This document shows, one piece after another, positions 8,682 to 27,835 of a stretch of 43,655 bases of DNA (position 1 is the first letter of the stretch; every line of letters begins with the position of its first letter). The stretch comes from a phage. Location of the stretch: NCBI GenBank assembly GCA_029093185.1, contig GCA_029093185.1_4348.1. One strand, written 5' to 3'. A program made the position numbers and the translations under genes. The notes below the pieces were generated by a model. That model was not told the origin of the DNA, ran no database searches, and worked only from the letters and a program-made list of their open reading frames with translations.

Positions 8682-8915
8682 TTATTCCAGGTCTTCTAAA
8701 GTGGCTGTCACCCCACGAACTTCGGCAACAGCACTATATCTCCCGCCAACATTTTTCACGACACCAGATTTAACCAGCACCTTCAACGACCCTTCAATGA
8801 TGGCGGAACTATAGTACCTAAAATAACTGCGGCGCAAGTCCATAACGCTGCACGACCCTTTTTTACGTGTTACCGAAACAACCGCCGTAAATACGCGTGA
8901 CTGGAACTCGGTCAT
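8682..8915 (-). CDS. Hypothetical replication-associated protein
   Basis: 77 aa; C-terminus ends TLEDLE, matching the tails of the nuclease and primase-helicase. Confidence 0.5.
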   Translation of the reverse strand: MTEFQSRVFTAVVSVTRKKGSCSVMDLRRSYFRYYSSAIIEGSLKVLVKSGVVKNVGGRYSAVAEVRGVTATLEDLE

Positions 8916-9106
8916 TTTACATTCTCCTTAATCCACGCTTCTACTTTCTCCGGGTCGAACGTACCAGGCTGCCGGCGGCCCATAATACGGATACAACAAT
9001 CCGGGAACTTCCCACTCTTTAACCAGTTATTCAGCGTGCGACGAGTAACCCCGATACGCTCAGCTACCTCATTCTGTGTCATTCTCAAACCCTCATTATC
9101 AGTCAA
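8912..9106 (-). CDS. AlpA/excisionase-like HTH DNA-binding protein
   Basis: 64 aa; LRMTQNEVAERIGVTRRTLNNWLKSGKFP; first gene of the minus-strand operon. Confidence 0.6.
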   Translation of the reverse strand: MTDNEGLRMTQNEVAERIGVTRRTLNNWLKSGKFPDCCIRIMGRRQPGTFDPEKVEAWIKENVK

Positions 9107-9522
9107 CGAAACTTAGTATACATTGCGAATAATGGGAAATCAAACATAATCGCACCTATTGACATTATGAAAATCTTCGTTTAAGGTGCTTTTGTATCTT
9201 AGTTACTTTGATTCCTGTTCACCTTGTAAAACCGCTTAAAACGCAGCTGCGCGCAGCGCAAGCAAAGTGTTAAGCGAAAGTTTACTGAACATAAGAATTA
9301 TCGTAACTTTCCTTCCTAAGTATCTCCGGTTGCCCTGGGCAAGCTCTATTCTCATCGGCAGCATATCTCTTAAGTATCTGATTTTCTTAATGTGCCGTAG
9401 ATTCGCAACCGTAAAAATGTAACGATTATTGGGCAGGCTTAAGCCTGCCCTTTAGCTACCAAGTAATAAGAATAAAGGCACAACCCTCCCCGAAGAATCA
9501 CAACGGCAACGTAACTATTCTC

Positions 9523-9556
9523 TTGCACACCCCAACATAATAGGTTACTATTCACT
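9523..9556 (+). promoter_or_regulatory. Early promoter (TTGCAC-17-TACTAT) with operator palindrome
   Basis: TTGCAC 9523-9528, 17-nt spacer, TACTAT 9546-9551; TAATAG-GTTA-CTATTC overlaps the -10. Confidence 0.55.
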
Positions 9557-9585
9557 TATCGAAACGAGACATAAGGAATTTAGAA

Positions 9586-9804
9586 ATGAACAAAGCGACC
9601 GCAAGCGTAGTTTCCGCAATCAAACAAGTTTACGGCATCGATATTTCAGAGCGCGTAATTATCGGGAACAAACGCAACTTCTTTACGTTCGGCACCGACG
9701 GTATGGATGGAAACGATTTTAACAACGTACAACGTTTCGCTATCGGTAAGGGGCTTCGTAATGAGCCTGCGGGTTACAAGAAATTCGCTATCTACTTTAA
9801 ATAA
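9586..9804 (+). CDS. Hypothetical early protein
   Basis: 72-aa ORF, first gene after the divergent control region; AAGGAA Shine-Dalgarno. Confidence 0.55.
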   Translation: MNKATASVVSAIKQVYGIDISERVIIGNKRNFFTFGTDGMDGNDFNNVQRFAIGKGLRNEPAGYKKFAIYFK

Positions 9805-11325: not shown

Positions 11326-11519
11326 TGGTGCAGAGATATGAGGTAAAAGCGTGGGGCCTGCCAGAGCCTGAGATGGCTGAGTACGCATACGGCGATTATG
11401 TAGAATATGACGCTTATCTGAAACTTGAAGCAAAGTTACGTGAATTCGCTAAGCAGGTGCTAGATAGCCCGTGTGACTGGAAGACAAATGAATTAGCGCG
11501 CGAGATTCTTGGAATATGA
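11325..11519 (+). CDS. Hypothetical protein (paralog pair, member 2)
   Basis: ATG 11325 overlaps the upstream stop (TAATG); YDAYLKLEAKLREFAK motif. The ORF track's longer version starts at GTG 11280. Confidence 0.45.
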   Translation: MVQRYEVKAWGLPEPEMAEYAYGDYVEYDAYLKLEAKLREFAKQVLDSPCDWKTNELAREILGI

Positions 11520-11809
11520 GCCTTGCAACTGACATCCTGAAACGAAGCGGCCTTGCGCCGCTGTCACCGAGAGCGAAGACACGTATACACAAGCGTCGCC
11601 GTAACGTGCTGTACCCAGAGATACAAGAACGGCGTAAAGCTATCCGCGCCTGTGGATTCCAGAACGGAAAGGCCGTGAATCTCGGTGAGTTTAAAACAAA
11701 GGAACGCGCAGCTATCGCGAACCGGCTATTTAATTACTGGAAATCGCTGGGGTACGATGATATTCCGACGAAACCACAGAGACGACAATACATCTGGAGA
11801 CATAAATGA
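11516..11809 (+). CDS. Hypothetical basic protein
   Basis: 97 aa, Lys/Arg-rich. Confidence 0.45.
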   Translation: MSLATDILKRSGLAPLSPRAKTRIHKRRRNVLYPEIQERRKAIRACGFQNGKAVNLGEFKTKERAAIANRLFNYWKSLGYDDIPTKPQRRQYIWRHK

Positions 11810-18664: not shown

Positions 18665-18687
18665 AGCCCCGAAAGGGGCTTTCTTAT
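18665..18687 (+). terminator. Terminator-like hairpin after the portal gene
   Basis: AGCCCC-GAAA-GGGGCT followed by TTCTT. Confidence 0.4.
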
Positions 18688-20228: not shown

Positions 20229-20231
20229 TAA

Positions 20232-20258
20232 AAGGCCCCATTATGGGGCCTTAGTTTT
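20232..20258. terminator. Bidirectional rho-independent terminator
   Basis: AAGGCCCC-ATTAT-GGGGCCTT flanked by a T-run on the plus strand and an A-run upstream; sits between convergent genes. Confidence 0.6.
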
Positions 20259-20461
20259 CAACGGAATCTTGTGTTTAAATCCTGCTCATGGACAACCCTC
20301 AGAACAGTGTCATAATCCCCGTATCTTCCAGGTTCAAATATATCTAATGCCTTGTAAGCAGACATTGCGTCAGGGAAAACCTGCAGAACCTTTTTAACCC
20401 GGCACAAGTCACCGTCGAACTCTTCATCGAACTCTTGAACTACTTCGCAAATTGCATACAT
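20258..20461 (-). CDS. Small acidic antisense moron protein
   Basis: 67 aa, about 14 acidic versus 8 basic residues; strong AGGAGGTG Shine-Dalgarno; own promoter and terminator. Confidence 0.6.
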   Translation of the reverse strand: MYAICEVVQEFDEEFDGDLCRVKKVLQVFPDAMSAYKALDIFEPGRYGDYDTVLRVVHEQDLNTRFR

Positions 20462-20569: not shown

Positions 20570-20585
20570 AACTATTCGAATAGTT
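20570..20585. promoter_or_regulatory. Perfect 16-bp palindrome AACTATTCGAATAGTT
   Basis: Same half-sites (CTATTC/GAATAG) as the recurrent operator but abutting with no spacer; adjacent to a TTGACT hexamer. Confidence 0.4.
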
Positions 20586-20836
20586 GACTTTTCACTAAAA
20601 ATATGATAAGCTCCACCTGAGCTTGTGAAGTATGAACAAGCGACCGCGGCGCGGGCAGGTAACGGAGCGGGACGTAAGTCCTGAGTGTAGTTACGCTGAC
20701 GCGTTCGGAAGGGCCATACTCTATTGCTTGTGTAAAAAGTAACTGGTTTACTGAGATTACGCCGTTTCTATGTTTAAATGATAAGGACTAGCGCCCCGCT
20801 TTATGGCGGGGCTTTACTTATCGAGAAAGGGGAAAC

Positions 20837-27809: not shown

Positions 27810-27835
27810 AAGGCCCCGAAAGGGGCCTTTTTTAT
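27810..27835. terminator. Bidirectional rho-independent terminator
   Basis: AAGGCCCC-GAAA-GGGGCCTT followed by TTTTTTATT; also terminates the convergent antisense operon. Confidence 0.65.

Follow-up and report, generated by a model that had tools for sequence, protein, structure and literature searches.

A predicted structured non-coding leader RNA occupies most of the divergent early control region of a Kagunavirus and has a paralogue ahead of the late genes

What does a phage keep in almost half a kilobase of gene-free DNA between its two main gene arrays? The question is raised by positions 9107–9585 of the phage contig GCA_029093185.1_4348.1 (NCBI GenBank assembly GCA_029093185.1), a stretch of 43,655 nucleotides which was analysed as a whole and is referred to here as the window. 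A 1.6 kb region around this interval matches the genomes of Kagunavirus and Jerseyvirus, which are Guernseyvirinae siphophages of Escherichia coli and Salmonella, and the window phage is, on sequence grounds, a Kagunavirus. In its close relative Bas73, for which a complete genome is available, the interval is the main divergence point of two large gene arrays: a leftward one with replication and DNA-metabolism genes, and a rightward one with approximately 13 small early genes followed by lysis, terminase and all structural genes, which extends over about 30 kb without a change of strand. The annotation of the Bas73 genome lists no phage RNA polymerase. The analysis described here identifies the interval as the early divergent control region of a Kagunavirus, with two host-type promoters placed back to back, and shows that this main control region is mostly an RNA gene.

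The sequence-only reading of this DNA had described the interval as gene-free, had listed within it a 10-bp palindrome, a direct repeat, a terminator-like hairpin and a TTGACA promoter hexamer, and had proposed that it could harbour a replication origin or, alternatively, a small non-coding RNA some 250 nt in length. All of these features were found in a direct check of the sequence, but judged by dinucleotide-shuffle frequencies they are individually close to chance and unremarkable: in 2000 shuffles of the interval, the observed count was reached by 38% for a repeated 9-mer, 8% for TTGACA, 6% for an 8-bp hairpin and 2% for at least three 10-bp palindromes. The features of the interval carry weight instead because they are conserved across the 448 phage records which match it; in 299 of these the match covers 80% or more of the interval. 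At the sequence level the interval is better conserved than the adjoining, essential helicase-primase gene, as it shares 77–81% identity with Jerseyvirus, including long invariant runs, while the helicase-primase protein is only ~63% identical between the same two genera. Conservation includes TTGACA, both copies of the repeat TAAGTATCT and the hairpin GGGCAGGC-TTAA-GCCTGCCC with TTTAGCT behind it; the palindrome CTGCGCGCAG is present but is not a conserved element, since it sits in the type-specific tip of a variable hairpin (P3, below). The repeat and the hairpin are therefore real, but they are parts of one RNA unit and not separate signals. A 14-nt inverted repeat (9162–9175/9380–9393), which by eye is not conserved in the Jerseyvirus alignments, was treated as chance.

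Both promoters of the back-to-back pair have a 17-nt spacer (Table 1). The leftward promoter, found by consensus scan, would serve the operon of a small helix-turn-helix (HTH) protein and the helicase-primase, and lies within the block AATGGGAAATCAA, while the rightward promoter, P(+)1, lies in the block CACCTATTGACAT; each block is invariant in all homologues of the type to which the window belongs (T1, below). Transcription from P(+)1 would start at approximately 9194–9196 and would produce a plus-strand non-coding RNA of ~260 nt, the early (E) leader. The pattern of P(+)1, TTGAC-N18-TAAGnT, is found at only two sites in the whole window, against 0.04 expected, and these are the promoters of the E leader (9159) and of a second, late (L) leader (20584). 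A further rightward promoter, P(+)2, is predicted ~35 nt before the first early start codon, its −10 element falling within the palindrome AATAGGTTACTATT. This promoter does not vary among the Kagunavirus types and is also conserved in Jerseyvirus; an A-rich stretch separates it from the hairpin that ends the E leader.

The 5′ domain of the E leader, 108 nt in length, is predicted to fold into one long nested hairpin. The minimum free energy (MFE) fold of the single sequence yields this hairpin with z = −4.1, although single-sequence folding leaves the strand undecided because the opposite strand also folds well. Comparative evidence comes from 25–27 distinct Kagunavirus and Jerseyvirus sequences, hand-aligned to five stacked helices and clade-specific inner pairs. 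Over 39 pairs, 98.2% of cells are paired, as compared with 83.8 ± 0.9% in shuffles (0 of 500 shuffles) and with 24–48% when the partners are slid by 1–3 columns, and the covariation score is 0.35 versus 0.14 in shuffles (0 of 500). Fifteen pairs changed on both sides between sequences. Helix P2a, for example, is UGUUCA/UGAACA in Kagunavirus but GUUUCA/UGAAAC in Jerseyvirus, P2 is closed by A-U, G-C or U-A, the base of P3 occurs as CGCUUAA/UUAAGCG, UGUUUAA/UUAAACA and CGCCGAA/UUAGGCG, and one Jerseyvirus pair passes through U-A, G·U and G-C. The cells comprise 851 of Watson-Crick type, 45 G·U at seven positions and two A·C; as G·U cells can pair on the plus strand only and A·C cells could pair on the minus strand only, this excess points to a plus-strand RNA. 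Unsupervised RNAalifold, run on a MAFFT alignment, reports covariation only for P2a, P2 and the terminal hairpin. The covariance analysis in related phages which the sequence-only reading had named as a check thus finds the pairing of the 5′ domain kept by compensatory changes, and its suggestion of a non-coding RNA of about 250 nt is well supported by the conserved promoter, the non-coding stretch which follows it as far as the terminal hairpin, the compensatory changes and the plus-strand excess of G·U. The invariant 5′ arm GUUAC (9201–9206) has two potential GUAAC partners, one at 9303, which closes the long hairpin, and one before the terminal hairpin (9417–9421), which is the one RNAalifold picks; the two partners could form an alternative-structure switch.

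The 3′ domain which follows, ~120 nt, is nearly invariant between Kagunavirus and Jerseyvirus in the alignments and is, by this measure, constrained at the level of primary sequence. Its few substitutions are switches from G·U to A-U or G-C within predicted helices, and its motifs are common to the other early-locus types and to the L leader. The E leader ends in a perfect, GC-rich stem of 8 bp which resembles a weak intrinsic terminator. In relatives the apical pair of this stem changes from C-G to U-A, and in other phages this position is taken by unrelated hairpins (GGTGCC-TTCG-GGCACC and GGGGTGGGC-TAAC-GCCCACCC). Only four of the eight tail positions are U, for which reason the hairpin falls below the threshold of our terminator scan. 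Near-repeats are present at 9336–9345 and 9430–9439 (TGGGCAAGCT and TGGGCAGGCT), and therefore UUGCCC (9330–9335) could pair locally or, instead, with the 5′ side of the terminal hairpin, a dual pairing which offers a possible antiterminator alternative.

A paralogous element lies directly before the late operon. We built a covariance model, R1, from the early elements of phage ST20 and of Snoke-type phages, using their RNAalifold structure, and this model matched the window at the L leader with 112.6 bits (E 2e-28); the R1 search of the window did not detect the E leader. The L leader folds into a short hairpin and a long branched helix. Among 28 distinct sequences 99.2% of cells are paired, versus 92.2 ± 0.6% in shuffles (0 of 500) and 28–45% after sliding; several pairs occur in three states (CG/UA/AU, UA/GC/AU) and two G·U pairs are invariant. 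It is conserved from promoter to ATG in both genera, with its first hairpin and its terminator hairpin kept by compensatory changes. Its terminator-like hairpin (8 pairs, 7 of them G-C) is the top plus-strand site in the scan and ends 24 nt before the first start codon; as this leaves no room for a promoter in between, the L RNA must be a 5′ leader which is read through. The block shared with the 3′ domain of the E leader includes AGATTACGC...CCGT, the counterpart of which in the E leader is AGATTCGC...CCGT. By sequence, the E and L leaders are thus two paralogous promoter-proximal leaders of one genome, each behind a promoter of the same dedicated class.

The L element is syntenic in Bas73 and in Jerseyvirus SETP7 and is also found in many IMG/VR contigs. 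Its Kagunavirus version is present in 181 phage records at 84–100% identity, 179 of which are at 95% or above. This version occurs at more than 96% identity in many Salmonella phages (SETP13, FSL SP-101, LSPA1 and others), including Jerseyviruses such as FSL SP-101, and SETP7-type phages carry a diverged version, a distribution which points to horizontal exchange of the leader between the genera. The L site is also a divergent promoter region, with a small minus-strand open reading frame (ORF; 20258–20461) upstream, preceded by a bidirectional terminator. This terminator (AAAAGGCCCC-ATTA-TGGGGCCTT, 20231–20258) closes the portal/head-decoration block and would isolate the late-leader promoter from upstream transcription; hairpins such as AAGGCCCC recur at 27810 and 39869.

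Table 1 Coordinates and sequence details of features in the window.
Feature	Position	Strand	Details
Interval	9107–9585		bounded by the start of the minus-strand HTH gene (8912–9106) and the plus-strand ATG at 9586
Leftward promoter (HTH/helicase-primase operon)	9115–9143	−	−35 TTGATT 9143–9138; −10 TATACT 9120–9115
Rightward promoter P(+)1 (E leader)	9159–9187	+	−35 TTGACA 9159–9164; −10 TAAGGT 9182–9187
E leader	9194–9457	+
E leader, 5′ domain	9201–9308	+	long nested hairpin; MFE fold and comparative pairing
P1	9201–9206/9303–9308	+
P1b	9210–9214/9295–9299	+
P2a	9216–9221/9286–9291	+
P2	9226–9230/9281–9285	+
P3 base	9233–9239/9270–9276	+	variable tip holds the palindrome (9247–9256)
E leader, 3′ domain	9309–9430	+
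Repeat TAAGTATCT	9317–9325, 9371–9379	+	3′-domain motif
Other 3′-domain motifs		+	UUCCUUCCU; CTCTATT 9344; TGCCGTAG 9393–9400; AGATTCGC 9399–9406
E terminal hairpin and tail	9431–9457	+	hairpin 9431–9450; tail TTTAGCT
Second rightward promoter P(+)2 (early genes)	9523–9552	+	−35 TTGCAC 9523–9528; 17-nt spacer; −10 TACTAT 9546–9551; palindromic motif 9539–9552
Ribosome-binding site, first early gene	9573–9577	+	AAGGA; ATG 9586
L leader with promoter	20584–20836	+	RNA 20613–20836
L promoter	20584–20612	+	TTGACT 20584; 17-nt spacer; TAAGCT 20607
L structured domain	20613–20747	+	R1 match
L shared 3′ block		+	CTCTATT 20719; AAGTAACTG 20737; AGATTACGC 20754, then ...CCGT
L terminator-like hairpin	20793–20812	+	tail TTTACTTAT; scan tail TTTACTTATC
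Spanin gene start	20837	+	ribosome-binding site and ATG; then scaffold, capsid and tail genes
AATAG-N4-CTATT sites	3152, 6045, 6089, 9539, 10274, 10443, 13458, 18685, 20488, 20579, 29612, 36762, 42468

In order to compare the early locus across Kagunavirus, we anchored the genomes on P(+)2. The left half of the control region falls into five unrelated sequence types, T1 to T5 (the window being T1; the types were seen across L035, L036, L037, L042 and relatives). Types T2 to T5 each have their own plus-strand promoter and a different 5′ sequence, followed by the shared 3′ motifs UCUAUU, YUAAGUAnCUGAU and GCCGU and by a GC-rich hairpin at the same place. This hairpin module exists in three unrelated versions, one of which has a UUCG loop on the plus strand only. 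The pattern suggests that the early locus is a mosaic with cassette-like exchange at a non-coding site. ST20 combines a helicase-primase that is 92% identical with a left half of another type, and Snoke-type phages have a different helicase (~30% identity), hence the type of element does not follow the replication protein. Snoke-type phages also carry a (CTCA)n microsatellite immediately ahead of the UUCG hairpin, with ~4 units in L037 (about 1740–1760) and 7 in L041.

The description of the interval as gene-free holds, as no ORF in the early leader is conserved among the variants. The longest ORFs lie on different strands and in different frames and have different sequences, ORFs of 30 or more amino acids are absent from three variants, and the variants do not differ in length by multiples of three; we therefore rejected the reading of the early leader as a small-protein gene. 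GenBank records place 'hypothetical protein' coding sequences on both leader RNAs: Bas73_0055 (L001 3137–3457), K2_046 (L002 792–947) and SETP7 gp48 (L004 992–1138) at the early leader, and SETP7 gp07 (L419 5775–5894) overlapping the late one. Judging from sequence comparison, the annotated ORFs over the early leader are most probably spurious.

Known RNA families do not account for the leaders. Nowhere in the window did a family of Rfam release 15 score at or above its gathering threshold, and below that threshold the best matches to the interval had E values of 1.1 or more; six related loci, which represent the other types and the late leader of a Jerseyvirus, gave nothing at E ≤ 1, and a tRNA/tmRNA search of the DNA gave no hit. 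Scans of metagenome and genome collections with a 16-mer pattern returned almost only chance matches, and the pattern CACCTATTGACATNNT was dropped as a probe because it is too unspecific. In the literature searched on Kagunavirus and Jerseyvirus, which offers only gene-level RNA sequencing and automated promoter and terminator lists, these RNAs, their promoters and their transcript maps are undescribed.

What could such a pair of leaders do? We propose that the interval encodes a cis-acting leader RNA which governs transcription read-through, a reading to which we assign a probability of about 0.42. Polymerase from P(+)1 would synthesise the E leader, with its nested hairpin, its invariant 3′ domain and its GC-rich hairpin and short U tail; the early genes would have a promoter of their own, P(+)2. 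Polymerase starting at either member of the dedicated promoter class would meet a terminator at the end of the leader and then the terminators within the ~30-kb rightward array, where the scan places strong plus-strand sites at 18665, 20232, 23184, 27810 and 30299. The folded leader would make this polymerase read through, either alone, as put RNA does in phage HK022, or together with a phage or host factor. A candidate RNA-binding partner, proposed from its sequence, is a 97-amino-acid early protein (11516–11809, plus strand; phrog_9632) with an arginine-rich N-terminal stretch, RAKTRIHKRRRN.

The closest parallel is offered by putL and putR of HK022, in which a promoter, a structured RNA, a terminator and a long operon follow one another twice per genome (PMC9378689). 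Here too there are two related cis elements per genome, each just 3′ of a host-type promoter of the TTGAC-N18-TAAGnT pattern and ahead of terminator-like sites and a long operon, with a folded RNA that has conserved helices, and here too the host polymerase would transcribe the whole genome. The structure that defines put, ~70 nt in two adjacent stem-loops with similar copies, is not what we find, since the E leader is ~260 nt long with a single extended hairpin of 108 nt. Moreover, put belongs to a temperate lambdoid phage, whereas this phage is virulent, its units are ~220–260 nt long with mutually unrelated 5′ domains, a further promoter lies behind one of the two, and their sequences show no similarity to put. 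The put RNAs make polymerase pass terminators without the help of a protein, by way of the β′ zinc-binding domain. Paired left and right promoter-proximal RNA sites also recall the nut sites of the lambda N system, with boxA and boxB, and rrn antitermination leaders. In the E leader a small hairpin (9330–9342) is directly followed by GCTCTATTC, which resembles the boxA consensus GCUCUUUA; we rejected the identity with boxA, as GCTCTATTC is found in T1 only and the other types or the L leader have AGTCTATTG, ACTCTATTG, CGTCTATTT or AATCTCATT. Unlike in nut, neither the other types nor the L leader retain the GCUCU core, only UCUAUU being shared, and unlike in lambda no N-like protein was identified, the arginine-rich protein mentioned above being only a lead. 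A likeness of TGCCGTAG to the ops element of RfaH, GGCGGTAG, was dropped because the late leader is without GTAG. The E and L leaders are thus best filed as a new family within the promoter-proximal regulatory leader RNAs, one that resembles put and nut in layout and does not have their defining structure.

We hold the read-through reading tentatively, because transcription, termination and antitermination are all inferred, and several observations weigh against it. The 5′-domain sequences were aligned by hand so as to fit the structure, and a single split between the Kagunavirus and Jerseyvirus clades accounts for most of the covarying cells; for the 3′ domain, whose fold is only predicted, covariation is uninformative, the sequences being so nearly identical that the shuffle pairing baseline is already 98%. 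Termination at the E hairpin may be doubted, given its poor U tail and the U-poor tails of several relatives. With P(+)2 downstream at the early locus, the early genes need no read-through, and the RNA might then be a product in its own right. The E leader greatly exceeds put in size and bears no similarity to it. Furthermore, the 5′ domain differs completely between E and L and among the five early-locus types, which is hard to reconcile with a single fold that binds RNA polymerase. RNA sequencing of Kagunavirus in the literature amounts to one paper, at gene level. The bolder form of the proposal, that Guernseyvirinae leader RNAs, one early and one late, render E. coli and Salmonella RNA polymerase terminator-resistant, alone or with a host factor, we regard as improbable.

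If transcripts from P(+)1 end at the terminal hairpin, or are trimmed to it, the outcome would be a stable, trans-acting early RNA of ~260 nt, which would bind or titrate a protein (a host factor, a defence system or a phage regulator) through its invariant 3′ domain, the 5′ hairpin lending stability or decoy specificity. A promoter and a terminal hairpin of its own, a separate promoter for the downstream genes, five interchangeable types within one genus, reminiscent of the fast turnover of early counter-defence loci, and a 3′ primary sequence whose invariance suggests a conserved recognition partner all agree with this. We nevertheless consider it doubtful, as the paralogous L element cannot stand alone, its hairpin abutting the ribosome-binding site, and as the E tail, UUUAGCUA, lacks the long run of U of Hfq-type base-pairing small RNAs and does not place the leader in that class. 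Complementarity is also no better than chance: pairing of the E RNA with phage start regions reached −40.3 kcal/mol at best, compared with a null best of −43 ± 3.5, no pairing with the L leader exceeded chance, and blastn found no matches in E. coli genomes, in a search that is insensitive to short seeds. A protein could instead act on DNA, as lambda Q and AlpA of Pseudomonas do; the 64-amino-acid product of the first leftward gene would then bind near both promoters and load onto polymerase, and the RNA fold would serve processing or stability, for instance as a target of RNase III or as a protective hairpin at the 5′ end, and not antitermination. This product is a small winged-helix regulator (PF12728 HTH_17, 31.1 bits against a cut-off of 27; phrog_66), which some records annotate as AlpA family, and the HTH gene is among the four earliest in a time course of Kagunavirus K1B4 (PMC12645636). 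AlpA has exactly two promoters under its control, both with leader terminators behind them (PMC7969949), and the promoter class of the window phage is likewise confined to the two leaders. Lambda Q at pR′/tR′ (6S RNA) and AlpA share with our loci a constitutive-looking promoter and a leader of 50–250 nt which ends in an intrinsic terminator ahead of late or lysis genes; the L hairpin fits this well, while the E hairpin has the GC-rich stem and a tail below the scan threshold. In those systems, however, the signal is a promoter DNA element and no conserved RNA fold is required, whereas here the leader RNA is under structural selection. In addition, the protein matches HTH_17 and not the AlpA model (no match at E ≤ 0.01), the −35/−10 spacers of the two promoters (TTATGAAAATCTTCGTT and TTTCACTAAAAATATGA) show by eye no clear shared motif, ST20 keeps both leaders without an annotated HTH regulator at that position, and ~120 nt that are invariant across genera and shared between paralogues would be left unexplained. 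We therefore think this mechanism unlikely. Long interrupted hairpins are typical RNase III substrates in the early RNA of T7, another virulent coliphage, where they lie in the early leader, just after the early promoters, and in inter-cistronic RNA; those sites have no sequence relation to the leaders described here, and RNase III sites are not known to have an invariant flank of 120 nt or a dedicated promoter class.

Two further explanations place the function of the interval in its DNA. The replication origin proposed in the sequence-only reading, with a loading site for helicase-primase or priming from a promoter-derived RNA and with the palindromes and repeats as protein-binding sites, would be well placed at a strand switch next to the replication operon, where GC content is lowest (41%) and the cumulative GC skew has its minimum (~9400–9800). 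Transcription-primed origins with structured RNA exist, as in ColE1 RNA II and the T7 primary origin. Divergent transcription explains the skew minimum equally well, however, and the interval is without an iteron cluster, having a single copy of the P4-type octamer TGTTCACC, of which four more are dispersed in the window, and no direct repeats beyond two-copy 8–20-mers. The palindrome is not conserved, and the element is not matched to the helicase in ST20 or in Snoke-type phages. As the pairing moreover fits the plus strand only, and as the late region, 11 kb away and distant from the replication genes, contains a paralogue, we judge an origin highly improbable. An array of operators would treat GTAACT/AGTTAC, TAAGTATCT and CTATTC as regulator sites of the divergent promoters and the RNA pairing as a by-product of inverted repeats. 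It draws on the motifs related to AATAG-N4-CTATT and the copies of GTAAC/GTTAC which recur through the interval, and on a perfect palindrome in Jerseyvirus, GTAACTT-C-AAGTTAC, at the predicted transcription start. Operators do not need 30–40 nested pairs over 108 nt, though, and this explanation fails on pairing which is kept while the sequence changes completely and on the 45:2 ratio of G·U over A·C, so that we find it very improbable as a full account. DNA sites may well overlap the RNA gene, in which case the RNA and operator readings are compatible.

Kagunavirus and Jerseyvirus are among the most often isolated phages of E. coli and Salmonella and are widely proposed for therapy and food safety, and the two leaders with their promoter class provide a concrete handle on early-to-late regulation in Guernseyvirinae. 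They also add to the known RNA families one that is supported by covariation and absent from Rfam, and allow probably spurious 'hypothetical proteins' to be removed from hundreds of annotations. Should the leaders make polymerase resistant to terminators, they would join HK022 put as a second example of processive antitermination by RNA, with no structural relation to it, would explain how ~30 kb are transcribed through multiple terminators without a polymerase of the phage's own or an annotated late activator, and would provide both a new antitermination device and, for use in synthetic biology, a compact part.

The −10 element of P(+)2 belongs to a more widespread motif, AATAG-N4-CTATT, which includes the −10-like TACTAT and has 13 sites in the window, against 1.1 expected. 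A Kagunavirus paper lists this motif seven-fold as 'phage polymerase promoters' (PMC9825357); the annotated genomes examined here contain no phage RNA polymerase of the kind which that paper assumes, and the motif probably marks a common promoter class of these phages. Two of its copies (6045 and 6089) lie just upstream of a plus-strand Cro/C1-type HTH gene (PF01381; 6133–6348) inside the leftward replication array.

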